DNA of 64,000 bases from assembly GCA_035529075.1 (NCBI GenBank), contig DATKXK010000011.1, forward strand, positions 64,295 to 128,294, in the 5' to 3' direction. This document shows positions 6,282 through 23,447 of the stretch, in pieces. Each line of letters begins with the position of its first letter. The first letter of the stretch is position 1. The position numbers and the translations under genes are program-made. Source of the stretch: Acidobacteriota bacterium. GTDB lineage: Bacteria; Zixibacteria; MSB-5A5; GN15; FEB-12. Under the pieces are notes generated by a model. That model was not told the origin of the DNA. It saw only the letters and a program-made list of their open reading frames with translations, and did no database searches.

Positions 6282-6324
6282 CGTCTGCGTTGACTGCCGT
6301 CACGCCGAGGTGTATCTTCAGTCC

Positions 6325-7818
6325 ATGCGGAATCCTCCTGCGCTCGGTCGCTCTCTGCCCGGAATCAATCCGGGCGCGGTTTCAGGATACGTGGTCACGC
6401 TGGGAATCGTCTTCGCGGCCTTCCTGGTGTACGCCTTGTTGAGGAAACCGCTCTACTTATGGGCGGCGGCCGGTTTGCCCGTGGCTCTTCTCGTAGTGTC
6501 CAACCCGCGGGTGGCGCTCTGGCAGTTTGTGTTCGTGCTCTTCATCTATGTCCCGGCCATCAGGAGCATCCCCCTCTACCTGGTGGATATCAGCGCCATG
6601 CTGGCCATCCTCGCTGCGGCACTCGACCTGTTCCTGCGCGGTGGCGGGCCGGGCCGGCCGCCCCTGCTGGCCGGTAACTATCTGGCTATTCTTGCGGCCC
6701 TGGCCATAGCCGGTCTGTTCAGCTATGATCCGTCGAGGGCCCTGCGACCACTGCTTAGAGTCGGCGTTCTGTTTGTCACTTTTCTTTCGGTGTATCGTCT
6801 GGCCGGCCGGGCCGATGTCGCGAGGATGCTCAGCCTTTTCTTCGGCCTTTGCGCCGTGTATTCGGCGTTCGTCGTGGGGCAGTTTCTCGCCGGCGGCGGT
6901 TCCGTTCGAGTGTTCGGACTTGCCCGCGTTGCTTTCGATGAATTGGCCATGCTGGCTCTGCCGGTCGGTGTGGCACTGTTTCTGTGGTCATCTGACAGGC
7001 GAGCAATACCATATTTGATCGGTTCAGTTCTGGTGGCCGGAGCCCTGGTGGCAACGCAATCCCGGGCCTCCATCCTGTTCGGCTTTACAGCCGCGTTTCT
7101 GGCCCTGGCCATTACCTTTCTGCGGGTGCGAAGAATGCGCGGAGCGACGGGCCTTGCAGGGGCGGACGCCGGGTTGGTTCTGACGGCCCGATCGGCCGGG
7201 CGGCGGTCGGGCGCCCTGGTGGTTTCGTTTTTAGTCCTGGCCGCGACCGTCATGGTTCTGCAGCAGGGACTCTTTCAGGGCGTACTGGCAAGGTTCGAGG
7301 GCTTGTTCACATCCCGACCCGGCGGGACCTTTCTGCTGCGCATCACACTGTGGAAGACAGCCCTTGCCGCCTTCTGGGATCATCCCCTGTTGGGCGTGGG
7401 TCCCGGGATGTTTCGCCGCATTTCCGACGTCTACACTACCATTCACCTCGATCCTACCTTCCTGTGGGTCAGGGGAAAGTCGGCTCACAATCTCTTCCTG
7501 CATTACCTTGCGGAAACTGGACTGGTGGGCGCTGCCGCCCTGCTGGCGCTGTTTGTCAACCAACTGCGTCTCATAAGGCGGCGGTGGGTACGGGTCGCCG
7601 ATCCGAACCGGTTCGGCCCGACTCTGGCACTGTACCTTTGCGGGCTGCTGCTTCTGGCTACCACCTTGTTGGAGGCGGGCTGGATGTGGGGCCAGACGGG
7701 TTTTATCGCGGTCTTTTTCCTGGCTGTCATCGCACGCCAGGCGGACCGTGACAGGCGGGCATCGTTGAGGTCGGTCACGGCGGCGGGGCTTGCCGAGAGT
7801 GAGAGCACACCGGGTTAA
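6325..7818 (+). CDS. O-antigen ligase-like (Wzy_C) polytopic membrane protein
   Basis: Many TM segments; SRASILFG...; periplasmic loop then HNLFLHYLAETGLVG. The ATG at 6325 was chosen because the track start (6181) overlaps the divergent gene. Confidence 0.7.
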   Translation: MRNPPALGRSLPGINPGAVSGYVVTLGIVFAAFLVYALLRKPLYLWAAAGLPVALLVVSNPRVALWQFVFVLFIYVPAIRSIPLYLVDISAMLAILAAALDLFLRGGGPGRPPLLAGNYLAILAALAIAGLFSYDPSRALRPLLRVGVLFVTFLSVYRLAGRADVARMLSLFFGLCAVYSAFVVGQFLAGGGSVRVFGLARVAFDELAMLALPVGVALFLWSSDRRAIPYLIGSVLVAGALVATQSRASILFGFTAAFLALAITFLRVRRMRGATGLAGADAGLVLTARSAGRRSGALVVSFLVLAATVMVLQQGLFQGVLARFEGLFTSRPGGTFLLRITLWKTALAAFWDHPLLGVGPGMFRRISDVYTTIHLDPTFLWVRGKSAHNLFLHYLAETGLVGAAALLALFVNQLRLIRRRWVRVADPNRFGPTLALYLCGLLLLATTLLEAGWMWGQTGFIAVFFLAVIARQADRDRRASLRSVTAAGLAESESTPG

Positions 7819-7973: not shown

Positions 7974-8363
7974 ATGATGAAAGTAGTTTTACTACTGGCG
8001 GTCCTGCTGGTATTCGTGCTCGCCCCGTGCGGAGACCTTGTCTCGAAGGACAAGCCGTGGGATGATGGGAACGACGGCGGACCTAGCGACGGCGGGCCCG
8101 AAGGGGAGGACCATCCCTGGGGAGGCGAAAACCAGACGCCCGGTGATATCTGGAATCGGCTCAGCCCACTGGAAAGCGCCACCGGTGTCTTTGTGGTCGA
8201 TGCCTTGTACCGCCTGCCGGGCATCGATACGTATCTCGAATCCCGTTTGTTCTGGGTCAGAACCGACCGGCCTTACCGCGACATTCAGAAAAAAAATCGG
8301 GGCGTCACCGACGTTCCGAGGCAGGAGAATTCATCAATCGGGAGCTACGGGGTAGAAAAGTGA
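7974..8363 (+). CDS. Small exported Gly/Asp/Asn-rich protein, unknown function
   Basis: Hydrophobic signal MMKVVLLLAVLLVFVLAPCG, good RBS. Its stop overlaps the GTG start of the downstream activator (GTGA). Confidence 0.6.
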   Translation: MMKVVLLLAVLLVFVLAPCGDLVSKDKPWDDGNDGGPSDGGPEGEDHPWGGENQTPGDIWNRLSPLESATGVFVVDALYRLPGIDTYLESRLFWVRTDRPYRDIQKKNRGVTDVPRQENSSIGSYGVEK

Positions 8364-10639
8364 AGCAGAAGAGCAATAACACAGGCACGGAGTTCTGCGA
8401 TGCGGTAGCGACGTACATATCGTCGCTGGCCCAAAAGCGGGACTGCGCCGGTGTTGTCAGGTACTACGAGGCACATCGTAGTCTCATTGACGACGCCGGT
8501 GGATCCTGGGCGGGCGCGATCCTGCTCAAGGTGTCCGACGCCTGGGCTTCCCTCACTGACTACCCTGCAGCCTTGAAAACGGCTCGTGTCGCACAGGCCA
8601 AGGCAGCCGAAGACGGAGACAGCGTCCTTCTTGCTGAGATCTTCGTCACTCTCGGAGGCATCCTGCGCGACATGGGACAGGTGAAGGAAGCGCAAAAGGC
8701 GTTTCAGGACGCGGAATCAATCTTCCGCCGTAACGACTGTCTCGAAGGTCAGAGCCGCGCGCTCAATCTCCTGGCCGGACTGTACTTCCGGCAGGCGGAC
8801 TATCGCAGCGCCCTGCGGGTACTCATGGACGCAGTGGAGATTGCGCGCAAACTCGACGACAAGCAGAAGCTGGCCTTCATGATGGGAAACATCGGCCGGG
8901 TTTACACCTTTATGGGCGATCTGGCCGAAGCCGAGAAGCACCTGACCATCAACGTCGATCTCTCCACGGAGCTTCGGGACGAGTTGGAGGTGGCGCGTGC
9001 GTATCTGTCGCTCGGTTATATTCACATCCAACAAGCCGCCTATGACAAGGCGGAGCGGGCGCTGGCGCAGGCATATCCGCGGATCATTACGGCCGCGAGC
9101 CGGCGGGACGAGGTCATTTACATGACCTACCTCGGTGAACTGCGATACCGCACCGGCCGCAACGAGGAATCCGGCGCAGTTCTCGAGAAGGCGCTGGTCA
9201 TGGCGGAGGGCATCGCGCCGGGGACGACCCTGGTCGGCCGTGTCCTCAGGCACCTGGCTGAGTTGAACTTGCGCCTGGACAACTACCGTCTGGTCCGGAA
9301 GTTTGCCGCCCAGTCCATGGTCATAATGGAAAAGACCTCAAACAAGGTCGAAACCGGCGCGCTGCTGCGTATAAAGGCGCAGGTGGCCCAGGCGCACGGT
9401 CACAAAAAGGACGCCGTCCGGCTCTACAAAAAGGCGATCGACGTGCTGGATGAATCCGGTGTTCGCTTTGAGAGGGCTGAAGCTCTGGTGGCGGCGGGCA
9501 AATGCGAACTGTTCGGTCAGCGGCAGCGCATGACCTACCTGTTCCGTGCCGAGGAGTACTATTCCCGGTGTCGGATGACTCAGCGGCTTGACAAGGTCAG
9601 CCGGTTGATCAGCTCTCTTGGCTGCACCAAGGCGGGCCCGGTAACTCCAACGAGAACCGGGACGACGGGCGGGGTCGACTTTCTGACGGCCTCACCGGTG
9701 ATTCAACGTTTCAAGGCACAGTTGCCGATGTTCGGCCATTCCGACCTTCCGCTCATGCTCACCGGTGAGACCGGTGTCGGCAAGGATCATCTGGCCCGGT
9801 ACTTCCACTCCCTGGTTCGGCCCGGCGGACCGTTTGTGGCCATCAACTGCGCTTCGGTTCCCGAGACGCTCCTTGAATCGGAGTTGTTCGGCTACAGCCG
9901 GGGAGCTTTCACGGGTGCCGACGCAAGCAAGTGCGGTCTGTTCGTAGCCGCAAACGGCGGTGTCCTGATGCTCGATGAGATCGGCGACATGCCCCTGAAG
10001 CTTCAGGCCAAGCTGCTTGGAGTTCTGGAGCGGCGGAAAGTCATTCCTCTCGGTTCTACGACCGAGGTTGCCCTTGACGTCATCCTGGTCGCGGCCACGA
10101 ACAAGAACCTCGAAGCCATGGTCGAAGACGGTACGTTCCGGCGCGATCTGTACTACCGGCTCAGCGGCATTACCTTCCGCATCCCGCCGTTACGAGAGCG
10201 CCGGGAGGACATTGCACTTCTGCTGAAGCACTTTCTGGTAGAGCATGATCTTCTGCCGGAGGACCTGGCACCGCCTGCCGAACTGGTCAGGCTGTTTCTG
10301 GCCTATGATTGGCCGGGTAATATCCGCGAACTTGACAACAAAGTCAAACGACTCCAGGTCATGTCGCAAATGGTGGCTGAGGGAGACCTGGTAGAGTTGT
10401 ACCGTTCGCTGTTCCCCCAAAGCGCCGACCTGGACGAATCCTCGGACGGCGAGAGTCTTTTCCAGCGCGTGGAGCAGTTTGAGCGGAAACTGATCACGGA
10501 GGCGCTTCTGGCGGCACGCGGCAACAAGAGCGAGGCCGCACGCCTGCTGGGCGTGCACGAGGCGACGGTGCGCACCAAGCTGAAGCGGTACGGCATTTCG
10601 GTACCGCCCACGGTCTTAAGAGGAGGTGCACCCAGCTAA
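8360..10639 (+). CDS. Sigma-54-dependent transcriptional activator (EBP) with an N-terminal TPR region of about 440 aa
   Basis: Walker A GETGVGKD, GAFTGA loop, ESELFGY, DEIGDM, Fis-type HTH GNKSEAARLLGVHEATV. N-terminus is TPR-like and no receiver domain was recognised. Confidence 0.9.
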   Translation: MKQKSNNTGTEFCDAVATYISSLAQKRDCAGVVRYYEAHRSLIDDAGGSWAGAILLKVSDAWASLTDYPAALKTARVAQAKAAEDGDSVLLAEIFVTLGGILRDMGQVKEAQKAFQDAESIFRRNDCLEGQSRALNLLAGLYFRQADYRSALRVLMDAVEIARKLDDKQKLAFMMGNIGRVYTFMGDLAEAEKHLTINVDLSTELRDELEVARAYLSLGYIHIQQAAYDKAERALAQAYPRIITAASRRDEVIYMTYLGELRYRTGRNEESGAVLEKALVMAEGIAPGTTLVGRVLRHLAELNLRLDNYRLVRKFAAQSMVIMEKTSNKVETGALLRIKAQVAQAHGHKKDAVRLYKKAIDVLDESGVRFERAEALVAAGKCELFGQRQRMTYLFRAEEYYSRCRMTQRLDKVSRLISSLGCTKAGPVTPTRTGTTGGVDFLTASPVIQRFKAQLPMFGHSDLPLMLTGETGVGKDHLARYFHSLVRPGGPFVAINCASVPETLLESELFGYSRGAFTGADASKCGLFVAANGGVLMLDEIGDMPLKLQAKLLGVLERRKVIPLGSTTEVALDVILVAATNKNLEAMVEDGTFRRDLYYRLSGITFRIPPLRERREDIALLLKHFLVEHDLLPEDLAPPAELVRLFLAYDWPGNIRELDNKVKRLQVMSQMVAEGDLVELYRSLFPQSADLDESSDGESLFQRVEQFERKLITEALLAARGNKSEAARLLGVHEATVRTKLKRYGISVPPTVLRGGAPS

Positions 10640-10966: not shown

Positions 10967-11072
10967 ATTGTCATTTTTACTCCTGAGCACTGTTGCCAGT
11001 GCTTGGTAGGTCCTCTTTTCTTTGGTGTGTGGCCGCCCGCAATTGAGGGGATTGCGGGCGGCGCGCTTTTTT
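10967..11072 (+). ncRNA. Candidate sigma-54-dependent small RNA or terminated leader (about 105 nt; 5' end inferred)
   Basis: Between the sigma-54 promoter and a strong terminator. Contains hairpin GCACTG-TTGC-CAGTGC and the C/U tract CCTCTTTTCTTTGG. No ORF with an RBS. Confidence 0.4.
11032..11072 (+). terminator. Rho-independent terminator
   Basis: GCCGCCCGCAAT-tgagggg-ATTGCGGGCGGC 12-bp stem, then GCGC TTTTTT. Confidence 0.7.
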
Positions 11073-11130
11073 GGCTCACACGATACGTTTTAAGTTGTGT
11101 TTTGAGAACCGGTTGCCCTTCTTTGACGCT

Positions 11131-11790
11131 ATGTCGCGGCCTGCCCTGGGATTGATAGAAACGAGGGGACTCGCCGGAGCACTGGCGGCAACCCGCGCGG
11201 CCACTGACGCCGGTCAGGTCGTTATTGCCTCCCTGGAGCAAACCGATGCCGGGATTGTCACAGTCCGTTTCGAGGGAGACTGGCAGGCAGTCCAGCAGGC
11301 GGTCGAGGCGGGAGCACGGGCCGCTGAAGCTCTGCACGACCTGATTTCCATGCACGTGATCCCTCGCACGGACAACGGTCTCAGTCCCATCCTGCCGTAC
11401 GGACGGTTCGTGGCCAGGTATCGCTCCGAGGAAGACAGGGGGCCGTCACCTCCGCGAACGCCGTCGCTGAAACCTGCCTCACGGCCGGAGCACCGGGAGA
11501 TCAAGCTGCCCCCCGCACAGCCCGCGCCCGCTGTACCGACAGTTGCGCGCGTGGCGCCGCCGCCGAAACCACCGGTCACGCCAGAGCCCGCCGTTATCCC
11601 CGCGCCCGCCGTCCAACCGACTTCCGCCCCGCAGCCGCTTAGTCTTGACGAACTGGCAGAGATGCCGGTGGTCAAACTCCGCAAGTATGCACGGACAATC
11701 AGGAACCTTCCGATACAGGGCCGCCAGATCTCCAAGGCGAACAAGGAGACTCTGCTGGAAGCTATCCGAAGCGTCCGCGTGCCCGAGTAG
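11131..11790 (+). CDS. BMC-H (PduA/EutM-type) shell-domain protein with a Pro-rich linker and a Rho_N/SAP-like C-terminal domain
   Basis: ALGLIETRGL...GIVTVRFEGDWQAVQQAVEAG...HVIPR...ILP aligns along the PduA fold. The C-terminal roughly 140 aa are PxP-rich, then LSLDELAEMPVVKLRKYAR... Confidence 0.85.
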   Translation: MSRPALGLIETRGLAGALAATRAATDAGQVVIASLEQTDAGIVTVRFEGDWQAVQQAVEAGARAAEALHDLISMHVIPRTDNGLSPILPYGRFVARYRSEEDRGPSPPRTPSLKPASRPEHREIKLPPAQPAPAVPTVARVAPPPKPPVTPEPAVIPAPAVQPTSAPQPLSLDELAEMPVVKLRKYARTIRNLPIQGRQISKANKETLLEAIRSVRVPE

Positions 11791-12138
11791 ATAACTTCGC
11801 GCCACCGGTCTCCATAATCTGCAATCGATCCGTCAAGTCTTCTCTCTTCCGCCGGATCGATCAACCCGGCGGGGCACGCACTCACCGACGAACCGATATC
11901 CTGCTCTGATGCGAGCTTCAGTGCGTTCAAGCTGGCGGATGATGCGGGACCGTGACGAGGTAATGGGCGGGTCGGAGTTCCCTGCGCAGGGGGCGTTTTC
12001 GGTTGATTTATCGGGTCTTACGGTATATATATGACCTCTGAGAAACCGTCGGCAAGTGTTCAACAGGGGTCGGCAAGGTAAGTGTCCGGTCCGTCGGCAT
12101 ACCCGCCGGACGGGCCTGCGCAGGAGGGCGGTGCAGTC

Positions 12139-13092
12139 ATGGAGAAGATCCTCATCACCGGTGCACTGGGCCAGATCGGCTCGGAACTGACCGTGGTGTT
12201 GCGCCAGCGGTACGGGCGGGAGAACGTCGTGGCCACGGATATCCGGATGCCGAGCGACATCAGCCTGCGCGATTCCGGTCCGTTTGAATTCCTGGACGTC
12301 CTTGATCCGCATCACATCACGAGGGTCATGCAGATCTACAAGGCGGACACCATCTACCATCTTGCGGCGATTCTGTCGGCGGTGGGCGAAACCCGCCCGA
12401 ATGTCGCCTGGCAGGTGAACGTGAACGGTCTGTACAACATCCTCGAGGCGGCGCGCCAGTACGACTGCGCCCTGTTTGTCCCCAGTTCGATAGGCGCTTT
12501 CGGCAAGTCCACGCCGCTGGACAACACGCCGCAGGACACGATTCAGCGTCCCGATACGATCTACGGGGTCACCAAGGTGGCCGGAGAGCTTGTTTGCGAC
12601 TACTATCACAAGCGCTTTGGACTGGACACGCGCGGGCTTCGCTTCCCGGGACTGATCTCGCACCAGACCGACCCCGGCGGCGGAACCACCGACTACGCCG
12701 TTGAGATCTTTTACGACGCCATCCGGCATCGGGAATTCACCTGTTACCTGCGGGCTGATACGTCTCTGGACATGATGTACATGCCGGACGCCATCAGGGC
12801 GATGATTGACCTGATGGAGGCCGACCCGTCCCGGCTGGTGCACCGCAATGCCTTCAACGTCACGGCGATGAATTTTACCCCGGCGCAACTGGCCGACGAA
12901 ATCCGGAAACACATCCCGGAGTTTGAGATTAAATACCAGGTAGACCCGGAGCGACAGGAGATCGCGGACAGCTGGCCTAACAACATGGACGATTCGGCCG
13001 CCCGCAGGGAATGGGGTTGGCGTCACGAGTACGATCTTCCCAGGATGACATCAGACATGCTGGACGTCTTGTCCCGGAAGCTGGCGGGGTGA
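12139..13092 (+). CDS. tdh: L-threonine 3-dehydrogenase, NAD-dependent epimerase/SDR type
   Basis: ITGALGQIGSEL Rossmann motif, GGGTTDYAVEIFY, MMYMPDAI, ADSWP. The ATG at 12139 follows a GGAGGG RBS. Confidence 0.9.
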   Translation: MEKILITGALGQIGSELTVVLRQRYGRENVVATDIRMPSDISLRDSGPFEFLDVLDPHHITRVMQIYKADTIYHLAAILSAVGETRPNVAWQVNVNGLYNILEAARQYDCALFVPSSIGAFGKSTPLDNTPQDTIQRPDTIYGVTKVAGELVCDYYHKRFGLDTRGLRFPGLISHQTDPGGGTTDYAVEIFYDAIRHREFTCYLRADTSLDMMYMPDAIRAMIDLMEADPSRLVHRNAFNVTAMNFTPAQLADEIRKHIPEFEIKYQVDPERQEIADSWPNNMDDSAARREWGWRHEYDLPRMTSDMLDVLSRKLAG

Positions 13093-13128
13093 GTCGGCCC
13101 GTCGCACCGTTCGCCTCGAGGCCACAGG

Positions 13129-13503
13129 ATGATTTTCGGCATCGGCATAGACGACGTGGACGTGGAAAGACTCAGGCGGCGTCTCGGTGATACCGGCGGT
13201 CTCAAGGAGAGAGTGTTCACGCCGCGGGAGATTGAGTACTGCGAGTCCAGGCGAAGCAGCGCGCAGAACTTCGCGGCGCGCTTTGCCGCCAAAGAGGCGT
13301 TCATGAAGGCAGTCGGCACCGGCTGGCGGGACGGGTTGAAGTTTACCGACGTTGAGGTGGTTAACAACGAGAAAGGGAAGCCTGAACTTGTTCTTCACGG
13401 TGTGGCGAAACGTCTTGTCGACGAGAGCGGCATCACCAACGTCCAGGTATCCCTGTCACATATAAGGGATGTTGCCAGTGCCGTTGTCGCACTGGAGAAG
13501 TAA
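13129..13503 (+). CDS. acpS: Holo-[acyl-carrier-protein] synthase (4'-phosphopantetheinyl transferase)
   Basis: MIFGIGIDDVDVERL, FAAKEAFMKA, SLSH; 124 aa. Confidence 0.9.
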   Translation: MIFGIGIDDVDVERLRRRLGDTGGLKERVFTPREIEYCESRRSSAQNFAARFAAKEAFMKAVGTGWRDGLKFTDVEVVNNEKGKPELVLHGVAKRLVDESGITNVQVSLSHIRDVASAVVALEK

Positions 13504-13517
13504 AGGGAAAATGGAGA

Positions 13518-15224
13518 ATGACTAACATCGGGTCCTACGCCGAACGAGTCAAAAACTTCGATTGGTCAATTTCCGAGAAAGAGCTGGCGTTTAAGGACGG
13601 AAACGTCATCAACATCGGCTGGTACTGCTCCGACCGGATCTGCCAGTTGGGCATGGCGGACAAGCCGGCCCTGCTCTGGGAGAACGCGGCGGGACGGGAG
13701 AAGCGTTATACCTACGACGACGTCAGGCTGACCACCAACACCATCGGCGCGTTTCTCAGGGGCCTGGGGATCGGCGACGGGGACAGGGTGTGTCTTTTCA
13801 TGGACAAAATCCCCGAGCTGTACCTCGGGTTTCTGGGGGTGCTCAAGATCGGGGCCATCGCCCAGCCGCTCTTCTCGGCCTTCGGTGACGAGGCGTTGCG
13901 CATCCGGCTCAGTGACGCCGGGACCGCGGCGATCATCACCCAGCGCAAGCACGTCGCCAAGGTCCGGAAGATGCTCGACCAGGTGCCCCATCTCAGGCAC
14001 GTTATTCTTGTCGATTACGACGGGCGCAAGCCGCTTCGGGATCGGGAGGTTGCCTTTTCCCTGGAACAGGCCGAGCCCGTGCAGGAGTTGGAGATCTTCC
14101 CTACCAAGGCGGAGTCACCGTCCGTGCTTCACTATACGTCCGGAACGACCGGGCAGCCCAAAGGCGTCAAGCACGTTCACTATGCGCTGATCGCCCAGTA
14201 CCTGTCCACCAAGTGGGTTCTGGACCTGCAGCCGGACGACGTATACTGGTGCACGGCCGACCCGGGCTGGGTGACGGGTACGTCCTACGGCATTATCGGT
14301 CCCTGGAGCCTGGGCGTCACGCAGTGCGTCCTGGATGCGGGTTTCTCGGCGGAGGCCTGGTACCGCTTCATTGAAAAGCACAAGGTCACGGTCTGGTATT
14401 CCGCGCCGACGGCCATTCGCTCGCTCATGAAGGCGGGCGATGACCTGGTGCGGAAGTTTGACCTTTCCTCGCTGCGGCACCTGGCCAGCGTAGGCGAGCC
14501 GCTCAACGCGGAGGCGGTGGTCTGGTCGAAGAACGTGTATGGGCATCCCTTTCTCGATACGTACTGGCAGACCGAAACCGGTTCGATCATGCTTACGAAC
14601 TTCCCCGGCATGGAGATCAAGCCCGGTTCCATGGGTAAGGCTTTTCCGGGCATAACGGCAACCGTTCTGGACACCAAAACCTACGAGCCGATCACGGAGC
14701 CGGGCCGGGTCGGGCTGATCGCTTTCAAACCGGGCTGGCCGTCGATGATGCGGGCGTACTGGAACAACGAGGCCACGTACCAGGCCAAGTTCAGAAACGG
14801 CTGGTACCTTTCCGGTGACCGTTCGAGCATCGACAAGGACGGGTACTTCTGGTTTACGGGGCGTGACGACGACGTCATCAATACCGCCGGTCACCTGGTG
14901 AGTCCGTTCGAGGTGGAGTCGGCTCTGCTGGAACATGAGGCGGTCGCGGAGTCCGCGGTGGTGGCCAAGCCCGATGAAGTAAACATGGAAGTCGTGAAGG
15001 CGTTCGTGACGCTCAAGCCGGGGTTTGACGCCGGTGCCGACCTCGAGTTGAACATCATGAACTTCATTCGCAAGAAGCTCTCCCCGCTGGCCATGCCCCA
15101 GGAAATCGAGTACGTTGATTCGCTGCCCAAGACAAGGAGCGGCAAGATCATGCGGCGGCTGCTGCACGCGCGGGAGTGGGGCGAAGAGATCGGTGACATC
15201 TCCACGCTCGAGGATGACGAGTAG
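13518..15224 (+). CDS. Adenylate-forming acyl/acetyl ligase, Bacillus AcsA-like
   Basis: YTSGTTGQPKG, WCTADPGWVTG, YWQTETGS, PKTRSGKIMRR; collinear with the 570-aa short acetyl-CoA synthetases. Confidence 0.85.
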   Translation: MTNIGSYAERVKNFDWSISEKELAFKDGNVINIGWYCSDRICQLGMADKPALLWENAAGREKRYTYDDVRLTTNTIGAFLRGLGIGDGDRVCLFMDKIPELYLGFLGVLKIGAIAQPLFSAFGDEALRIRLSDAGTAAIITQRKHVAKVRKMLDQVPHLRHVILVDYDGRKPLRDREVAFSLEQAEPVQELEIFPTKAESPSVLHYTSGTTGQPKGVKHVHYALIAQYLSTKWVLDLQPDDVYWCTADPGWVTGTSYGIIGPWSLGVTQCVLDAGFSAEAWYRFIEKHKVTVWYSAPTAIRSLMKAGDDLVRKFDLSSLRHLASVGEPLNAEAVVWSKNVYGHPFLDTYWQTETGSIMLTNFPGMEIKPGSMGKAFPGITATVLDTKTYEPITEPGRVGLIAFKPGWPSMMRAYWNNEATYQAKFRNGWYLSGDRSSIDKDGYFWFTGRDDDVINTAGHLVSPFEVESALLEHEAVAESAVVAKPDEVNMEVVKAFVTLKPGFDAGADLELNIMNFIRKKLSPLAMPQEIEYVDSLPKTRSGKIMRRLLHAREWGEEIGDISTLEDDE

Positions 15225-15254
15225 ACGACGGATAGAAGTGTATAGGAGACGGTT

Positions 15255-15500
15255 ATGGAAGACGCGAAGGACGTGGTCCTCAATTACATCATCGAGGAGT
15301 ATCTTGAAGAAGAGGATGACGAGATAACCTACGACACGCCGCTTATTTCCGGTGGCATCGTCGATTCCTTCTCCATGGTTTCCCTCAAGCGGTTCCTGGA
15401 GAATAAGTACCAGATAAGCATTCCCGACGACAAGGCCACGCCGGAGGCGTTTGACACCGTCAACAGCATCGTGGCGCTGGTGAAATCCTTCCTCGGATAG
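15255..15500 (+). CDS. Stand-alone acyl/peptidyl carrier protein
   Basis: 81 aa, acidic, phosphopantetheine-site-like GGIVDSFSMVSL. Confidence 0.8.
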   Translation: MEDAKDVVLNYIIEEYLEEEDDEITYDTPLISGGIVDSFSMVSLKRFLENKYQISIPDDKATPEAFDTVNSIVALVKSFLG

Positions 15501-15622
15501 GCGTGCGGACTGCCGGCTCGCAGTCAGGCGGACCGCGCCGAGTTTGGAATCCGGTCGGCGCCCGAGCTGTGGGACCCGAGGGCCGGGGCGAAGAGACCGA
15601 GTGTTGCATGAGGAGTTAAACA

Positions 15623-16870
15623 ATGGGTTACAGTGACAAAGTCAGGGCAATATACCAGGAACAGATCAAGGAAATTCAGGACGCCGGGCTGTTCAAGCAG
15701 GAACGGTTCATCCATTCCTCCCAGGCGGCGGACATCGAGGTCGAATTCCCCATCGGCTCGTCGTTGAAAAAAGTCATCAACATGTGTGCCAACAACTACC
15801 TGGGGCTTTCCAGCCACCCGGAGGTCATCAAGGCGGCGCACGACGGGCTGGAGACGCGCGGCTACGGCATGTCTTCCGTCCGGTTCATCTGCGGCACGCA
15901 GGACATTCACCATGAACTCGAGCGGAAAGTGAGCGAGTTCCTGGGCACGGAAGATACCATCCTGTTTCCCTCCTGCATGGACGCCAACGCCGGCGTGTTC
16001 GAGGCCATCCTCGGCAGCGACGACGTTATGATCTCGGATCGTCTCGTGCACGCCTCGATCATCGACGGGATGCGGCTGTGCAGTGCCGTGCACGACACCT
16101 TCAAGCACTCCAACATGCAGCACCTGGAATCAAAATTGCAACTCCACGCCGACAAGCGATTCAAGGTGGTCATTACCGACGGCGTGTTCTCCATGGACGG
16201 CGACACGGCCAAACTCGACGAGATCGTCGAGCTGTGCGAGAAGTACGACGCCATGGTGTTCGTGGATGACTCCCACGCATCGGGTTTCATCGGCCGGACC
16301 GGCAGGGGCACTCACGAAAAATGTGGCGTCATGGGCAAAATCGACATCATCACCACAACCTTCGGTAAAGCCCTCGGCGGTGCCTCGGGGGGCTGCGTCT
16401 CCGGGCGTCGCGAACTGGTGGAACTGTGCCGCCAGAAGGCGCGGCCCTACCTGTTTTCCAACACCATCGCCCCGGTGGTTGTCTCGGGCGTGCTCAAAGT
16501 GCTCGATATCCTCTCCCGGAGCACCGAGCGGCGCGACAAGCTGGAAGCCAACACGGCGTACTGGCGCAAAGGCCTGGCCGAGGCCGGCTTCGTTCTCAAG
16601 GAGGGCGACACGCCCATCGTCCCTGTCATGCTGTTCAACGCCAAACTCTCGCAGGATTTCTCCCAGGACCTGTACAACGAGGGAATCTATGCCATGGGTT
16701 TCTTCTTCCCCGTGGTTCCCCAGGGCCAGGCGAGAATACGAACGCAGATTTCAGCCGCCCACGAAACACATCACCTCGACAAAGCACTCGAGGCGTTCAT
16801 CAAAGTCGGCAGGAAATACGACATCCTCGGCAAGACGAAGCAGGAGATCATCGAGAAATACGGAATGTAG
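15623..16870 (+). CDS. kbl: 2-amino-3-ketobutyrate CoA ligase (glycine C-acetyltransferase), alpha-oxoamine synthase family
   Basis: CANNYLGLS, VRFICGTQ, DDSHASGF, TFGKALGG (PLP Lys), FFFPVVPQGQARIRTQ. Confidence 0.92.
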   Translation: MGYSDKVRAIYQEQIKEIQDAGLFKQERFIHSSQAADIEVEFPIGSSLKKVINMCANNYLGLSSHPEVIKAAHDGLETRGYGMSSVRFICGTQDIHHELERKVSEFLGTEDTILFPSCMDANAGVFEAILGSDDVMISDRLVHASIIDGMRLCSAVHDTFKHSNMQHLESKLQLHADKRFKVVITDGVFSMDGDTAKLDEIVELCEKYDAMVFVDDSHASGFIGRTGRGTHEKCGVMGKIDIITTTFGKALGGASGGCVSGRRELVELCRQKARPYLFSNTIAPVVVSGVLKVLDILSRSTERRDKLEANTAYWRKGLAEAGFVLKEGDTPIVPVMLFNAKLSQDFSQDLYNEGIYAMGFFFPVVPQGQARIRTQISAAHETHHLDKALEAFIKVGRKYDILGKTKQEIIEKYGM

Positions 16871-16919
16871 ACCGGCGAGTTGTTAGGCTGGGGCCCCTAA
16901 TCCTGAATAGGTGGTAGTA

Positions 16920-17651
16920 ATGGACAGCCCGTACGAGAACTATAACGCGGTTATCCCGCGTTTAGAGGCTAGCTTCTGGCTCACCGTTGGAGCCATCGGG
17001 GCTGCTCACGAAGCAAGAGCGGAGGAGGCCGCGGAGTTGGAACGCAAACTTGATCCGGCTGCGGAGTTGCAGCGCAAACTAGATCCGGCTGTTGAGGAAG
17101 AGGATTTGAGACAGCGGGTTGCGCTACTGTCGAGAACACTCCTTGTATACGGCGTGGTAATCCTGGAAGCAATGGTGAAGGACTATGCACGTTATCTTGT
17201 ATTCAACAAGCGCCAGCCCGCCACCTGTCGAAAAATGCAGGACAGCATGCTTCCGGTGGAACCCACTTTTTCCGACAAAATGAAGGATGCGTCCGCTCTC
17301 AAGCATCAGCAATGGCAGAAGAAACTAATAGGGTGGATAAAGCAGGTTGGCCAACAAGTTGGCGGTGATCAGGGACGGGACTCGCGCTTTCTCGCTGTCA
17401 GGGAGGCCATTATCAAGCGATGCATGGACTTTAGTCACTGGACTATCGTGTACAAATGCTGCATTATCCGGAACCTTGAGGTCCATAATAATGGGCTTAT
17501 GAACGAAAGGAATCACAAGTGCGCGCCTATTTGTGATATAGGTCAAAAGCCCAGTTGGGACTGGGAACTGGTCAGAGACCTGTTCACGGCGCTGGATCTC
17601 TTGAACGTTCATCTCAGTGAGACAGACGTTATACAAACGGGCAGTATATGA
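16920..17651 (+). CDS. Hypothetical protein with an Rx4H (HEPN-like) motif and a tandem 10-aa repeat
   Basis: AGGTGG RBS before the ATG at 16920. Motif IIRNLEVHNNG. The stop overlaps the SDR start (ATGA). Visibly lower GC: lines hand-counted at about 47-55%. Confidence 0.6.
   Translation: MDSPYENYNAVIPRLEASFWLTVGAIGAAHEARAEEAAELERKLDPAAELQRKLDPAVEEEDLRQRVALLSRTLLVYGVVILEAMVKDYARYLVFNKRQPATCRKMQDSMLPVEPTFSDKMKDASALKHQQWQKKLIGWIKQVGQQVGGDQGRDSRFLAVREAIIKRCMDFSHWTIVYKCCIIRNLEVHNNGLMNERNHKCAPICDIGQKPSWDWELVRDLFTALDLLNVHLSETDVIQTGSI
17031..17090. repeat. 2 x 30-bp in-frame tandem repeat inside the 16920 gene
   Basis: gcggagttggaacgcaaacttgatccggct / gcggagttgcagcgcaaactagatccggct (27/30), encoding AELERKLDPA / AELQRKLDPA. 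Confidence 0.9.
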
Positions 17652-18379
17652 GATCACTCAAAGACAAGGTTGTCGTCATCACCGGGGCCTCGCGCGGTAT
17701 CGGTGCCGCCATCGCACGGGTCATGGCCGGCCAGGAGGCCCAGCTGGTTCTGTGCGGGCGGAACAAGAAGAACCTCCAGAACGTGGCCTCATCGCTCAAC
17801 CTCTCGCGCGGCAACTTCGTGACCGTCACCGCCGACGTCTCCAAAGCATCGGGCATGGCCCGGATAGTCAGGACGGCGTATGACAAGTTCGGCCGGGTGG
17901 ACGTTTTCGTCAACAACGCCGGGGTGGGTATCGGCAAGCTGTTCATCAGGACCACGGAGAAAGAGTTCGATACCGTTATCAATACCAACCTGAAGTCGGT
18001 CTTTTACTGTTTCAAGGAGCTTCTGCCGCGCCTTCAGAAACAGGGCGGGGGCCAGATCATCAACGTTTCCAGCATGGCGGCCAAGCAGGGGACGCCCGGC
18101 CTGTCGGTCTACTCCGCTTCCAAGGCGGCGGTGAACGTGCTCAGCGAGGCGGTGGCCGGCGAGGTACGCAACGAGAACATCAAGATTTGCGTCCTGGCGC
18201 CGGCCTCGGTCGAAACCGGGTTCATGTCCAATTTGGCCCCGCGTGCCCGGGCTTCCAGCAAGGCGGCTCGCAAGCTCGCGGTGGAGGAAGTAGCCGACGC
18301 GGTTCTGTTTCTTGCCCGGCAGAACGAAAACGCGTGGGTATCGCTGGCCGAGATCCGGCCACTGTTCGTCAGAAAGTAA
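17648..18379 (+). CDS. Short-chain dehydrogenase/reductase (classical SDR)
   Basis: TGASRGIG cofactor motif, NNAG, YSASKAAV catalytic motif. Confidence 0.9.
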   Translation: MRSLKDKVVVITGASRGIGAAIARVMAGQEAQLVLCGRNKKNLQNVASSLNLSRGNFVTVTADVSKASGMARIVRTAYDKFGRVDVFVNNAGVGIGKLFIRTTEKEFDTVINTNLKSVFYCFKELLPRLQKQGGGQIINVSSMAAKQGTPGLSVYSASKAAVNVLSEAVAGEVRNENIKICVLAPASVETGFMSNLAPRARASSKAARKLAVEEVADAVLFLARQNENAWVSLAEIRPLFVRK

Positions 18380-18766
18380 ACACGCGGCCCGGCGGATTCG
18401 TCCCTGAAACAGAACCCGCCCCGGGCGCGCACCACAGGACGGGTTTCCCCCCTCACGCAGGGGAACAGCACACCAATTCCCCTACGTTGTCACCCACACG
18501 CAATACGCTTCCAGGCTGGCAAAGAGAGCCCTCATACAGAGTATGTAGCGGATGGATATGGTTGCTCTCTCTTCGCCTGTTACGCCTTGTCGCAGGCACG
18601 CAGCAAGGCGTTTACTACGGTGAATAGTATCGATAACATGGGTGGGGGTTCTGTATCAACTACTACAAAGTAAATATATCCGTCCCCTTGCTCGCTGTCA
18701 AGGCAAAACTTCGGCTTTCCACATAAACACTCCAAAAACGTTCCGCTGCGCTGCGTATGATCCGTG

Positions 18767-18795
18767 TTGACAGCACACGCCCGGTCCGGTATACT
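18767..18795 (+). promoter_or_regulatory. Near-consensus sigma-70 promoter of the icd-like gene
   Basis: TTGACA (18767-18772), 17-nt spacer, TATACT (18790-18795); 46 nt upstream of the ATG at 18841. Confidence 0.6.
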
Positions 18796-18840
18796 AAGAG
18801 GAATCACACGGCTTAACCTTATCCTTACAACGAGCATTGC

Positions 18841-19854
18841 ATGGCCAGACATACAGTGACCCTTATACCCGGGGACGGCATTGGTCCGGAAGTCACGCAA
18901 GCCGCCGTCAGGGTGATCGAAGCTGCCGGTGTGGATATCGAGTGGGACGTGCAGGATGCGGGGCTGGCGGCAATTCAGAAGTATGGCGTGTCGGTGCCGG
19001 ATTCGCTGCTTGATTCCATTCGCGAAAACAAGGTGGCGCTCAAGGGTCCACTGACAACTCTTGTCGGTAAAGGGTTCAAATCCGCCAACGTCACTCTTCG
19101 GCAGACCCTTGATCTTTACGTCAACTTGCGCCCGGTCAAGACGATAGGGGGAGTTCCAAGCCGCTTTGAGAAGGTTGATCTGGTTATTGTTCGTGAGAAT
19201 ACCGAGGATTTGTATTCAGGCATTGAAAGCGTTGTGCAACCGGGAGTGACGCAGGCGATCAAGATTATCACCGAGAGGGCATCCGAACGCATTGCCCGCT
19301 GGGCGTTTGAGTACGCCCGCCGGCACGGCCGCCGCAAGATCACTCTGGTGCACAAAGCCAACATCATGAAGATATCGGACGGGCTGTTCCTTCGCACCTT
19401 TCAGAGGATCGCAGTCGAATATCCGGATATAACCGCCGAGGACAAGATCGTCGATGCTCTGGCCATGCACCTCGTGATGGACCCGGGCAGGTTCGACGTG
19501 CTGTTGCTCGGCAACCTTTTCGGCGATATCGTATCTGACCTTGCGGCCGGTCTTGTCGGCGGACTGGGCGTCGTGCCCGGCGCCAATATAGGCGAAAAGT
19601 ACGCCGTTTTCGAGGCCGTGCACGGCACCGCTCCCGATATCGCGGGGAAAAACCTGGCCAACCCCACGGCCGTCCTGTTCTCGGCTCTGCTCCTGTTACG
19701 TCACCTGGGCGAGGACGAGGCGGCGGACCGTATCTGGAAGGCCGTGGTGCTCACGCTCGCCATGGGGCACTGCATGACCGGAGACCTGGGCGGCACTTGC
19801 TCCACCACGGAGTTTACGGAGGCAATCGTTAATGAAATCAGGGGTCGAGGGTAA
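18841..19854 (+). CDS. Isocitrate/isopropylmalate dehydrogenase family protein (NAD-IDH-like, 337 aa)
   Basis: IPGDGIGPEV, LKGPLTT, NLRP, ENTEDLYSG, GNLFGDI.SD, HGTAPDIAG. Confidence 0.85.
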   Translation: MARHTVTLIPGDGIGPEVTQAAVRVIEAAGVDIEWDVQDAGLAAIQKYGVSVPDSLLDSIRENKVALKGPLTTLVGKGFKSANVTLRQTLDLYVNLRPVKTIGGVPSRFEKVDLVIVRENTEDLYSGIESVVQPGVTQAIKIITERASERIARWAFEYARRHGRRKITLVHKANIMKISDGLFLRTFQRIAVEYPDITAEDKIVDALAMHLVMDPGRFDVLLLGNLFGDIVSDLAAGLVGGLGVVPGANIGEKYAVFEAVHGTAPDIAGKNLANPTAVLFSALLLLRHLGEDEAADRIWKAVVLTLAMGHCMTGDLGGTCSTTEFTEAIVNEIRGRG

Positions 19855-20948: not shown

Positions 20949-21881
20949 TTATTGGAGACTCTCGCTCCATTGCCGCATGTTCGCCTGATCGTGTTCGGCG
21001 CGATACCCTACCGCACCGATAAGCCTGAGGCTCTTCAGTCCCGCCGCCACCGGGCCGTACTTGGGGTGCTCGAATACAGAACCGTAACCCTCATCGAACT
21101 CAAACCCCACAGCCGGTTCTGACGGCCAGCCTGACCGAGCCACAGACTCCATCAGCGACAGATACTTTGTGCCGCCGCGATCAGACGCCAGAAAGAGCAG
21201 CAGCGTGTCGCCGTCCCGCACATAGCTCGATGTGAACACCTCGTCCAGGCCGGCGATCTCAAGGAAACTCGCGGGATAGTATTTATCCGAGGGAATGATC
21301 CGGTCTGCCTCGGGGAACAGGGCAAACGCCTCCGGCACCCAACCGGAATCGCCGATCAGTGTCGAAATCGTGACCGCCAGCAGACGCATGGCGTCGGCGG
21401 CCGCTTCGCGTTCATCTTCGGCCGTCAGCGAAACAACGCATTCTCTCTGCGTGAAGTGCATGGCGTTGCCCCGGACGTATCCTTCGGCGCCGAGCCGGAA
21501 GGTGGTGATGCCGTCCGGCCTTGACGCGGCATAAAGCCCGTACGCATCGTTGCTGGTTGCGAACTGCGCGATCTGAGCCGATATCTCGATGTCGCTCACC
21601 ACATAATTTCTGGTGGAACGACCGACCAGGCCGAAGGCGAGGTACCGGGCTGCCGGTTCGCCGGGCATCTCGTGCGCCTCGGCCCGGAGAACCGTGACTG
21701 CCGAATCGGTCGGCCGAATCACCGAACTGCTGTCGGGAAGGAATCGTGCGGCCACAAAGGGAACATCGGAAGCGTCGGCCACGGATGGTTCCCGCGTGCT
21801 GTCAGCATCTTTCCTGCCGCACGAGGCGGCACACAACGTCGCTGCGAGCACGGCTGTCATGATGCAGAGCTTGCGGAACAC
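20949..21881 (-). CDS. Lipoprotein, unknown function (last gene of the exosortase operon)
   Basis: Lipobox LCAASC after a hydrophobic signal; starts 6 nt after the UbiA gene stop. Confidence 0.65.
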   Translation of the reverse strand: MFRKLCIMTAVLAATLCAASCGRKDADSTREPSVADASDVPFVAARFLPDSSSVIRPTDSAVTVLRAEAHEMPGEPAARYLAFGLVGRSTRNYVVSDIEISAQIAQFATSNDAYGLYAASRPDGITTFRLGAEGYVRGNAMHFTQRECVVSLTAEDEREAAADAMRLLAVTISTLIGDSGWVPEAFALFPEADRIIPSDKYYPASFLEIAGLDEVFTSSYVRDGDTLLLFLASDRGGTKYLSLMESVARSGWPSEPAVGFEFDEGYGSVFEHPKYGPVAAGLKSLRLIGAVGYRAEHDQANMRQWSESLQ

Positions 21882-21887
21882 GGCGGC

Positions 21888-22769
21888 CTACAGGTAATAC
21901 AGTATAAGGATTGCGGTCAACAGCCAGAGGATTACGGTCACCAGTATCGGCCTGTCACTTATCAGGACCTGCGTCGGCGAGCCGCCCCTCTCTTCTTTGT
22001 GGATCAGGTACAGGTAGCGAAAAACCCCGTAGACCACGAACGGGATCGTCAGGTACAGGTTCTCCGTGCCCAGTTTTGTCGACACTTCAGTCGAAAACGA
22101 GTAGAGCATGTACATGACGACAACGGAAGCGGTGGTCACGCCGATGCATTGATCCAGGAGGTAGGGTGAGTATCGGCTGAGAATCCTGCGGTGCGCCACG
22201 GCACCGTCTTCGAGCAGAAGGAGTTCGTGGCGGCGCTTGCCGAAGGCCAGAAAGAGCGCCAGGAGCAGCGTGTTGATCAGGAGCCACTTGGATGCCGGCA
22301 CGTCGACGGCCACCGCTCCGGCGTAGGCGCGCACCACGAAGCCCAACGCCACGGCCATGACGTCAACGATAACGACGTTTTTCAGCGCCAGCGAATAAAG
22401 CAGGTTCAGGCCGAGGAACACCAGCGCGACGACAAAGAAGTGCCCCCCGAGGAACCACCACGCTCCGACGAGGCCGACAGCTACCAGCAGGACGATCATC
22501 ACCACCGCCTGAGGAGGGGCGACGGCGCCTGAAGCCAGCGGGCGCTCTTTTTTCAACGGATGCTGCCGGTCCTGTTGCCGGTCGATCAGGTCGTTGAAGG
22601 TGTAAACGGCGGACGACAGGAGGCAGAAGATCGCGGTGGCGATCAGGGCCAGTTCGGCCGACCTGGTGTGCCCGGCCTCTCCGGCAAAGACCAGTGCCGC
22701 CAGCACCACGCCGTTTTTCAACCACTGGGCGGGCCTGGCGAGCATGATCAGGTTTTTGAGCATATGCAA
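21888..22769 (-). CDS. UbiA-family prenyltransferase, decaprenyl-phosphate phosphoribosyltransferase-like
   Basis: ARPAQWLKN, NDLIDRQQDRQHPLKKERPLASG (NDxxD motif), about 8 TM segments. Confidence 0.85.
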   Translation of the reverse strand: MHMLKNLIMLARPAQWLKNGVVLAALVFAGEAGHTRSAELALIATAIFCLLSSAVYTFNDLIDRQQDRQHPLKKERPLASGAVAPPQAVVMIVLLVAVGLVGAWWFLGGHFFVVALVFLGLNLLYSLALKNVVIVDVMAVALGFVVRAYAGAVAVDVPASKWLLINTLLLALFLAFGKRRHELLLLEDGAVAHRRILSRYSPYLLDQCIGVTTASVVVMYMLYSFSTEVSTKLGTENLYLTIPFVVYGVFRYLYLIHKEERGGSPTQVLISDRPILVTVILWLLTAILILYYL

Positions 22770-22802
22770 AGATATCAGTCGGCCGGGGCCCGGCCAAGTT
22801 TT

Positions 22803-23447
22803 TTAACCGGCGAACGGCAGTGCTCGTTCGAGGTCGAGATAAAACGTCTGAAGGTACCTGACGGCGCGGTCCGCCGTGTTGTCTATGGTTTCGTCGCTGC
22901 CTATAGGCAGATTCACGCGAACAAAGGCTACGTCCGTCGGACGCAGGAGCAGCGAGTTGACCATCAGGTTCCACTTGAGCGCAAACTCACTCCGGATCGT
23001 GCCGCTGCGCGTTTCAAACCAGTATAGCATGAGTTGTTTCTGCTCGCGGTCGCGTATTATCAGGCGGTTGACCGTCTTGTGGCCCCCGTCCGGGAGGGGC
23101 AGCCGGTACGGTTCCAGCCGTTCGATCTTCCAGCCGCTGCCCGGCAGGCAGTGTCTGGGTGAATGAATCTGGCTGCCGTATTTCTGCGATTGGAAATACC
23201 CGACGAACATCCAGTAGGCGTCACCCTCCGGTGAAACGTACAGCCGCAGGGTGGTGGTGTCGGCCTGCAGGATATCGTACGAGTAGTCGGCGAAACGGCG
23301 TTCCTGGCCCGTGTAGCCGTCGCGGGCGTACGGTATCTCGTCGAAGTGCGGCGATCCTCCCGGGGGCCTGTCGGCGTATCGCAGGTACCAGGCAAACGCC
23401 CCCCCCGCTATGATCAGGATCGAGGCGATCAGGACGTACCGTCTCAT
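22803..23447 (-). CDS. epsI: EpsI-family exosortase-associated protein
   Basis: N-terminal TM, HSPRHCLPGSGW motif. The ATG at 23447 overlaps the exosortase stop (ATGA). The track ORF extends spuriously to 24176. Confidence 0.85.
   Translation of the reverse strand: MRRYVLIASILIIAGGAFAWYLRYADRPPGGSPHFDEIPYARDGYTGQERRFADYSYDILQADTTTLRLYVSPEGDAYWMFVGYFQSQKYGSQIHSPRHCLPGSGWKIERLEPYRLPLPDGGHKTVNRLIIRDREQKQLMLYWFETRSGTIRSEFALKWNLMVNSLLLRPTDVAFVRVNLPIGSDETIDNTADRAVRYLQTFYLDLERALPFAG

Follow-up and report, generated by a model that had tools for sequence, protein, structure and literature searches.

Comparison with described systems

Bacterial sphingolipid clusters and PigH-, SxtA- and BioF-type enzymes already exemplify the combination of a ligase, a dedicated carrier protein and an alpha-oxoamine synthase (AOS), and the loading of a carrier by a stand-alone ANL ligase, together with priming by AcpS, is the logic of the Dlt pathway. 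The stretch analyzed in this study (64,000 nucleotides of contig DATKXK010000011.1 from an Acidobacteriota bacterium; hereafter, the window) contains a run of seven genes in which a short AcsA-like ligase, a stand-alone carrier protein and an AOS resembling glycine C-acetyltransferase (Kbl), here called AOS1, follow one another. The original prediction treated the whole run as a pathway; the true unit is narrower and consists of the ligase, the carrier and AOS1, in an order that is kept across more than 10 phyla. We propose that this trio may form a carrier-dependent module that joins acetate to glycine, with the acetate-consuming direction favored, and we give this reading somewhat better than an even chance. 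What is new here is a Kbl-type, non-decarboxylative AOS for a C2 unit on a carrier, an Acs-type enzyme as the loader, and the breadth and conservation of the system in uncultured anaerobes; no published description of the cassette, or of the related ligase-carrier-MBOAT (membrane-bound O-acyltransferase) systems described below, was found in the literature. The seven genes are as follows (SDR, short-chain dehydrogenase/reductase; PLP, pyridoxal 5'-phosphate).

12139-13092 (alternative start 12082), plus strand: SDR/epimerase-type threonine dehydrogenase (TDH), 431 bits to PDB 7ol1, PF01370
13129-13503, plus strand: AcpS-type holo-carrier-protein synthase, 124 aa, NF000832 and TIGR00516
13518-15224, plus strand: AcsA-like adenylate-forming ligase, 568 aa, NF003313 and PDB 9g79
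15255-15500, plus strand: stand-alone carrier protein, 81 aa, PF00550
15623-16870, plus strand: AOS1, a Kbl-paralogue PLP-dependent AOS, 415 aa, NF005394 and TIGR01822
16920-17651 (alternative start 16911), plus strand: orphan open reading frame (ORF), 243 aa, no family
17648-18379, plus strand: classical SDR, 243 aa, PF00106

The genes, their spacing and the motifs given in the original prediction, including VRFICGTQ and PVVPQGQARIRTQ in the AOS and DSFS in the carrier, were all recovered as described. As in the Tdh-Kbl pathway (E. coli kbl-tdh), the PLP and substrate residues are kept in AOS1 and a TDH gene adjoins in this window. Unlike Kbl, however, AOS1 is much more conserved, belongs to a separate clade and is always paired with the carrier and the ligase; a canonical Kbl is often also present, and the cassette TDH is of the SDR/epimerase type and rarely adjoins. 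The Caulobacter and Sphingomonas clusters of serine palmitoyltransferase (SPT), acyl carrier protein (ACP) and acyl-ACP synthetase share with the proposed module a ligase that loads a dedicated carrier and an AOS that condenses the acyl-S-carrier with an amino acid. The cassette differs from them in its C2 pocket of the Acs type (vs. long chain), in a ligase that is not of the FadD/AasS type, in Kbl-type (glycine, non-decarboxylative, reversible) instead of SPT-type (serine, decarboxylative) chemistry, and in having no lipid-tailoring genes.

The Dlt pathway (DltA, DltC, AcpS and the MBOAT DltB) resembles the cassette in that the carrier is DltC-like, or peptidyl carrier protein (PCP)-like, in both sequence and predicted fold and would be primed by AcpS and loaded by a stand-alone ANL ligase; in addition, the ligase relatives P0126, P0127 and P0136 occur in true Dlt-like MBOAT cassettes. 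The acceptor in the cassette would be a cytoplasmic PLP enzyme, whereas that of the Dlt pathway is a membrane MBOAT, and, with a ligase that is Acs-like and not DltA-like, acetate is the presumed cargo in place of D-alanine. Bacillus subtilis AcsA and Salmonella Acs, with their Pat/CobB (AcuA/AcuC) partners, have in common with the cassette ligase the acetate pocket and the acetylatable Lys of PKTRSGKIMRR, and Pat-type and SIR2 genes are found near the cassette in some genomes; in contrast to these enzymes, the cassette ligase has Leu as the Arg526 equivalent and further A8-loop changes, and a carrier gene always follows it. The Acs1 of Syntrophus aciditrophicus (SaAcs1), which runs in reverse to form ATP, is likewise an Acs-family enzyme of an anaerobe, and the cassette ligase shares with it a possible ATP-forming direction; SaAcs1, however, is a long Acs that acts on CoA without a carrier protein, and its bias has been attributed to residues G196 and T197 of the CoA-binding loop (PMC13404658).

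Conservation of the ligase-carrier-AOS1 trio

A scan for the carrier in a collection with one genome per species gave at least 585 matches, and the synteny figures refer to the best 80 of these loci, with denominators that differ by gene. The 80 loci span more than 10 phyla (Zixibacteria, Delongbacteria, Aminicenantes/Acidobacteriota, Bacteroidota, Cloacimonadota, Ignavibacteriales, Elusimicrobia, KSB1, Bipolaricaulota and others), and the hosts are mostly uncultured anaerobes. AOS1 is located directly after the carrier in 74 of 75 loci; the single locus without it (L083) has an assembly gap (N-run). The ligase is directly before the carrier in 65 of 70 loci by strict criteria and in approximately 67 of 70 after re-inspection, the five strict misses being artefacts of overlapping ORF calls (L016 and L039), insertions of a large secreted-protein gene (L009 and L033) and one short contig. 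In 43 of 68 loci (63%), the gene immediately 5' of the ligase is AcpS. Within 9 kb of the carrier, a second Kbl-like gene that is a more canonical Kbl (AOS2) is present in 24 of 49 loci (49%) and TDH in 8 of 49 (16%). In an unbiased clustering of the 963 ORFs from the 80 loci, no families recurred beyond AOS1/AOS2, the ligase, AcpS, the carrier, TDH, SatP and Pat; no tailoring enzymes conserved around the trio were found by this clustering, and the Ser/Thr kinase and SiaC-like genes near the cassette are lineage-specific.

Because the order of the trio recurs in 80 of 80 species loci examined, a chance adjacency is rejected, and on this point the original prediction holds. Its description of a tdh-kbl pair split by an insertion is wrong, since the cassette has a Kbl-like enzyme of its own, which forms a distinct paralogue clade, and the ordinary Kbl is often an extra neighbor, adjoining in about half of the genomes. 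TDH, which had been counted as a core member, is an occasional companion.

The trio is also far more conserved than the neighboring genes. The identities within and between phyla are 84% and 81% for AOS1 and 79% and 75% for both the ligase and the carrier, against 75% and 62% for AOS2, 78% and 60% for TDH, and 62% and 48% for AcpS, which diverges like a vertically inherited gene. Such conservation may indicate either extreme constraint, which a system of closely interacting partners would be expected to show, or horizontal movement of the trio as a unit.

Among the accessory genes, the window TDH scores 250 to 420 bits against 17 further solved TDH sequences, and the next family, UDP-glucose epimerase, scores 67 bits. 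TDH adjoins the cassette in this genome, in Zixibacteria and in Ignavibacteriales and is absent from that position in most lineages; it is an accessory partner of the cassette. In at least seven loci, a gene for a SatP/YaaH acetate channel (PF01184) immediately follows AOS1 as part of its operon; in three Cloacimonadota loci, it is divergent upstream (10 SatP loci in total, e.g., L059:8857-9474). A Pat-type gene (approximately 900 aa, with an ACD-like N-terminus and a GNAT domain) lies within a few kilobases of the cassette in eight loci (e.g., L054:11188-13890). In a Zixibacteria locus (L006:10027-12977), the cassette is followed by a 732-aa fusion of a class-V aminotransferase with an AIR-synthase-like (SelD-type) domain and then by a SIR2 deacetylase, a possible CobB-type partner for lysine-acetylation control of the ligase.

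The Kbl-like enzyme AOS1

AOS1 passes both Kbl equivalog models (NF005394, 580.7 bits vs. a cutoff of 460; TIGR01822, 577.1 vs. 493), and its score with the Kbl hidden Markov model (HMM) is far above those with the BioF, SPT, ALAS and CqsA models; with the SPT equivalogs, it remains far under the cutoffs (318 vs. 640, 282 vs. 500, and 227 vs. 670). The enzyme is 54 to 57% identical to the solved Kbls, and in the alignment to E. coli Kbl (1FC4), the equivalents of the catalytic residues N50, H136, S185, D210, H213, T241, K244 and R368 are all kept. In a tree of 69 cassette AOS1 sequences, 4 solved Kbls and 30 co-resident Kbl-like genes, AOS1 is monophyletic and excludes all of the solved Kbls and all of the co-resident genes; it therefore does not count as an ortholog of Kbl, grouping apart from the characterized enzymes. 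The mean pairwise identity is 81.7% for AOS1, compared with 64.2% for AOS2 of the same genomes and 64.5% for the solved Kbls, and the AOS2 genes, with 572 to 628 bits on the Kbl model, are higher-scoring than the AOS1 of the window. Two segments are specific to AOS1, namely, an insertion at residues 41 to 50 (E-[FY]-P-x-G-x-x-L-K-K) and a C-terminal tail at residues 401 to 414 (ILGKTKQEIIxxYG), and six positions separate it from Kbl (S109P, F112M, A128V, N135V, L264C and S268A in the E. coli numbering). As judged from these sequence features, AOS1 is a Kbl paralogue that is separate from canonical Kbl, and it is proposed to act as a glycine C-acetyltransferase on an acetyl-S-carrier. No second Kbl was found in the window.

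A third Kbl-like class was observed directly downstream of AOS1, mainly in Delongbacteria (L009:10604-11863, L014:10550-11821, L018, L020, L027, L037, L038 and L062). Its members are 60 to 62% identical to AOS1 and carry the AOS1 insertion and C-terminal tail, yet score above the Kbl HMM cutoffs; the class looks like an AOS1 duplication.

The carrier protein and AcpS

The phosphopantetheine-attachment residue of the carrier is Ser38 in the motif GGIVDSFSM (codon 15366-15368). The protein is 75 to 85% identical in Acidobacteriota, Cloacimonadota, Zixibacteria, KSB1, Bacteroidales and Delongbacteria, with 40 of its 81 columns invariant, and its family is found essentially only in the context of the trio. 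It is something other than the ACP of fatty acid synthase (FAS): its score with the AcpP model TIGR00517 is 30.9 bits, against a cutoff of 70.45, and an E. coli AcpP query (E ≤ 1e-5) gave no match in the window or in approximately 100 loci, this carrier included. No FAS AcpP gene was found alongside the cassette in the window or in the fetched loci. The best sequence relatives are the Bmp1 ACP, PigG, PltL and DltC, which are type II peptidyl/aminoacyl carriers, and the best structural matches of an AlphaFold2 model (pLDDT of 84) are PigG, DltC, the CcbZ PCP and PltL. These four are stand-alone carriers that are loaded by their own adenylating enzymes. There is no NCBIfam model for the carrier; the nearest, that of the OlsH-ACP system of planctomycetes, gives 62 bits against a cutoff of 130, and the carrier was accordingly assigned to a different family.

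AcpS scores above the cutoffs of both of its models (NF000832, 116.5 vs. 107; TIGR00516, 93.6 vs. 59.8) and presumably primes Ser38 of the carrier. The gene had been regarded as a dedicated phosphopantetheinyl transferase; it looks like an ordinary AcpS, and because it adjoins the ligase in only some of the loci and is located elsewhere in the rest, the distribution suggests one AcpS that is shared with the rest of the cell.

The AcsA-like ligase

With the model for acetate--CoA ligases of the short AcsA type (NF003313), the ligase scores 760.2 bits, only just over the cutoff of 729; among its relatives, the Arg-retaining P0122 scores 841 and the carrier-linked P0126 and P0127 score 682 and 694, respectively. 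The closest solved relative is the 572-aa AcsA of PDB 9g79 (559 bits), and the long-chain ligase HMMs are far under their cutoffs (e.g., 301 vs. 476). The acetate pocket was examined at the equivalents of V310, T311, V386 and W414 of AcsSe: GWVTG, SVGEP and the Trp of Y-W-QTETG are kept in at least 95% of 69 cassette ligases, and the residue beside the pocket Trp is changed (W413Y). The catalytic, acetylatable Lys (SGK, within PKTRSGKIMRR) is kept in all 69. In contrast, the conserved Arg of Acs (AcsSe R526/AcsMt R528) is Leu460 in 69 of 69 cassette ligases, which likewise all have the changes G462S and V450D in the same A8 loop, whereas Arg or Lys is found at the R526 position in B. subtilis AcsA, 8rpk and 45 sampled relatives. 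This Arg stabilizes the thioester-forming conformation of Acs; its replacement by Ala makes the enzyme unsaturable with CoA, and replacement by Lys or Gln lowers kcat 130- to 326-fold (PMC10455477). The loop bearing the CoA-nucleotide residues Arg191/194 is lacking in short AcsA-type enzymes, including the genuine B. subtilis AcsA.

Relatives of the ligase were collected by a search of 1.84 billion cluster representatives, and a tree of 86 leaves was rooted on long Acs. All Arg-less sequences form one clade in this tree (36 of the 86 leaves); midpoint rooting was uninformative as to this clade. P0121, intended as an Arg-type control, was set aside because of its short contig. The genomic contexts in 8 lineages, a small sample, group by A8 loop as follows.

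A8 GHLVSP: the cassette ligases, P0126, P0127, P0136 and P0139; adjoining carrier in 5 of 5, 77-82 aa, with a D-S-[FL] motif
A8 GHL.GP: P0124 and P0125; without an adjoining carrier
A8 GERVGP: P0122; without an adjoining carrier

Because the cassette ligase lacks the Arg526 equivalent and the Arg-less clade has other carrier-linked members, it is probably not a plain Acs, which the original prediction had named as an outcome that would undo the proposal; the genomic contexts of the eight lineages support an acyl:carrier-protein ligase instead of a plain acetyl-CoA synthetase.

Three of the four non-cassette GHLVSP lineages occur in Dlt-like cassettes that include an MBOAT. Dlt-like cassettes whose adenylating enzyme is of the Acs and not of the DltA kind were seen at L092:129-4630, L101:2324-6653, L094:6001-11524 and L100:62-1936. 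The layout in the P0126 and P0136 cassettes is a 354- to 379-aa protein, the MBOAT, a small peptide, the carrier (77 to 82 aa) and the ligase, and that of the P0127 cassette is ligase-carrier with the MBOAT nearby. The ligase pocket in these cassettes reads "WF" and not "WW" or "YW". They may carry out carrier-mediated short-acyl O-acylation of an envelope polymer.

Proposed reaction and alternatives

In the proposed reaction, the carrier would first be primed by AcpS at Ser38; the ligase would then adenylate acetate and pass the acetyl group from acetyl-AMP to the phosphopantetheine thiol of the carrier and not to CoA. AOS1 would interconvert acetyl-S-carrier plus glycine and 2-amino-3-ketobutyrate plus HS-carrier, and TDH, where present, would interconvert 2-amino-3-ketobutyrate and L-threonine with NAD(H). 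The carrier would thus hold a private acetyl-thioester pool that is uncoupled from the acetyl-CoA/CoA ratio. The gene identities, the synteny, the separate clade of AOS1, a pocket of the acetate type, the lost Arg of the CoA step and the carrier linkage of related ligases are observed directly; loading of the carrier by the ligase, acetyl as the acyl group, glycine as the amino substrate and the direction of flow are inferred. The synteny, the pocket and the type of carrier support the earlier suggestion that the three proteins may work as a unit through an acyl-S-carrier loaded with acetate. The favored flow would be ATP-driven and condensing, with acetate entering via SatP and passing to the ligase, AOS1 and, if present, TDH; this direction is preferred because the ligase is ATP-dependent, SatP belongs to an uptake-type family and the control is of the Pat type.

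Several points weigh against the acetate-consuming module. The substrates and the direction are deduced from sequence and context. The ligase still exceeds the equivalog cutoff for acetate--CoA ligase and has an Arg at the position of AcsSe R584, and it may yet be able to use CoA. Carrier linkage does not extend to the whole Arg-less clade: P0124 and P0125, the latter being sister to the cassette ligases, have no adjoining carrier, and the eight lineages behind the carrier linkage are few. The extreme conservation could partly reflect horizontal transfer instead of constraint. TDH rarely adjoins the cassette, and about half of the genomes encode a canonical Kbl in the cassette operon, whose co-expression would create a futile cycle (net acetate to acetyl-CoA) if AOS1 condenses.

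The last point fits a catabolic direction better. Here, threonine would be converted by TDH to 2-amino-3-ketobutyrate, AOS1 and HS-carrier would release glycine and acetyl-S-carrier, and the ligase, running in reverse, would turn acetyl-S-carrier, AMP and PPi into acetate and ATP, with acetate leaving via SatP; a private carrier pool would permit a thioester ratio high enough for ATP synthesis. Canonical Kbl and AOS1, co-expressed from one operon, would then work in the same way without a futile cycle. The hosts are mostly anaerobic fermenters or syntrophs with predicted fermentation of amino acids, including threonine and glycine, and some Cloacimonadota have "acs" but not ackA/pta (PMC12590816); an AMP-forming Acs that makes ATP from acetyl-CoA, AMP and PPi is documented in S. 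aciditrophicus (PMC4992975, PMC13404658), and SatP proteins are anion channels in vitro. In vivo, on the other hand, the SatP family is characterized as uptake systems (PMC8379382), and Pat-type control classically restrains acetate activation. The low frequency of TDH also counts against threonine breakdown, and the carrier route would have no obvious advantage over acetyl-CoA and a reversed Acs. To our knowledge, no carrier-protein ligase has reverse activity, a further argument against this direction, and we consider it unlikely overall.

A different cargo or chemistry on the same carrier is decidedly improbable. The ligase might load propionate, glycolate or another C2-C3 acid, or AOS1 might use another amino acid, and the module would then yield a small amino-ketone or amino-alcohol metabolite, a cofactor precursor or a signal instead of threonine or 2-amino-3-ketobutyrate. 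The six clade-specific substitutions of AOS1, including F112M and N135V, the latter beside the PLP-stacking His, and W413Y in the ligase could point this way, the extreme conservation suggests a specialized role, and some AOS enzymes of natural-product pathways (PigH and SxtA) use acyl groups held on a carrier. However, the acetate pocket resembles that of Acs at all four positions, no Kbl residue for substrate or PLP has been lost, the HMM score clearly prefers Kbl over BioF, SPT, ALAS and CqsA, tailoring enzymes are not conserved around the trio, and a spread over more than 10 phyla looks like core and not secondary metabolism.

A sphingolipid-, sulfonolipid- or other lipid-type module, in which a long-chain acyl-carrier would undergo SPT-like condensation to a lipid head group, is hardly credible: the logic of ligase, ACP and AOS (with a reductase) does match the Caulobacter and Sphingomonas clusters, but the SPT scores of AOS1 are far under the cutoffs, the ligase is Acs-type and not FadD/AasS-type and keeps the pocket Trp (W414 in AcsSe), which limits Acs to C2-C3, and no N-acyltransferase or ceramide-synthase gene is conserved nearby, so that the caution in the original prediction that this is not simply a sphingolipid cluster was well placed. 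Equally slight is the chance that an ordinary tdh-kbl pair, a housekeeping acetyl-CoA synthetase with acpS and a stray ACP are accidental neighbors, for which it can be said that the ligase, AOS1 and AcpS each exceed NCBIfam cutoffs for ordinary enzymes and that all steps could run on CoA, whereas the order of the trio is kept in approximately 80 species of more than 10 phyla while its surroundings change, AOS1 forms its own clade and shares genomes with a canonical Kbl, the carrier family is essentially confined to the trio, and the ligase lacks the conserved Acs Arg.

Other genes and features of the window

The gaps between TDH, AcpS, the ligase, the carrier, AOS1 and the orphan ORF are, in order, 36, 14, 30, 122 and 49 nt, the last being counted to the ATG at 16920, a start that is also used by public gene calls; the orphan ORF shares its last 4 nt (17648-17651) with the start of the SDR. 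No strong terminator-like site was found on the plus strand within 12.1-18.4 kb in a scan of the window. A strong site of this kind is located just upstream of TDH (11977-11994), and the gene that follows the run is preceded by a promoter-like site at 18767. The seven-gene run is thus compatible with one operon, without proving one. An Rfam search (E ≤ 1) of positions 11000-19500 gave no RNA element, and the carrier-AOS1 gap varies from 4 to 124 nt across the loci and is not alignable; a riboswitch or other RNA element in the 122-nt gap of the window was ruled out on these grounds.

The orphan ORF has no Pfam, NCBIfam or PADLOC match, matches only itself among 5.8 billion proteins and is missing from all other loci; searches for a defense-system or phage-type identity were empty. 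It lies in the lowest-GC stretch of that part of the window (0.566) and is probably co-transcribed with the cassette, yet it is outside the conserved module. The window SDR is under the cutoff of every NCBIfam model shown and matches PF00106 only, and the other loci contain only unrelated SDRs of approximately 30% identity to it. Its suggested role as the ketoreductase of the pathway has no comparative support because the gene is not conserved with the cassette.

A lone bacterial microcompartment (BMC) shell-domain protein with a long Pro/Ala-rich C-terminal half is encoded just upstream of tdh (11071-11790, plus strand), downstream of a TPR + sigma-54 activator (8360-10639); no further microcompartment genes were found near it. 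A Wzy_C/O-antigen-ligase-like gene (6181-7818) lies upstream of the cassette, and an exosortase locus (20949-24286, minus strand) with DUF6599, a UbiA-family prenyltransferase, EpsI (DUF3485) and the exosortase EpsH lies a few kilobases downstream.

Implications

The module occurs in hundreds of species, among them Cloacimonadota, Aminicenantes, Zixibacteria, Bacteroidales, KSB1, Delongbacteria and others, and the trio proteins are among the most conserved of their loci. Annotation nevertheless does not reveal it, since the three proteins go under the names "acetate--CoA ligase", "acyl carrier protein" and "glycine C-acetyltransferase", and genome-based models infer acetate activation or production and threonine degradation from exactly these names. 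The "acs" calls in reconstructions from metagenome-assembled genomes (e.g., Cloacimonadota clade B, PMC12590816) may include the carrier-linked ligase, which passes NF003313. If the proposed module is correct, Kbl-type enzymes and Acs-type ligases would gain a new class of substrate, with a carrier protein in small-molecule primary metabolism.

A broader proposal, which we put forward tentatively and with clearly less confidence than the module itself, is that Kbl chemistry may proceed independently of CoA on a private acetyl-carrier pool and that the ligases may belong to a new clade of short-acyl:carrier-protein Acs-like enzymes, others of which feed Dlt-like MBOAT O-acylation. Were this to hold, many of the "acs" and "kbl" annotations in metabolic reconstructions for uncultured phyla would be mistaken. 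The acetyl donors of MBOAT O-acyltransferases are generally presumed, not demonstrated, and the related Acs-like ligase clade may supply acyl-carrier donors to these enzymes. For the hosts of the trio, CoA-independent Kbl chemistry would mean ATP-driven synthesis of threonine from acetate and glycine or, in the other direction, an ATP-yielding threonine fermentation, in which the thioester "charge" would be set by a ligase coupled to ATP/AMP + PPi.

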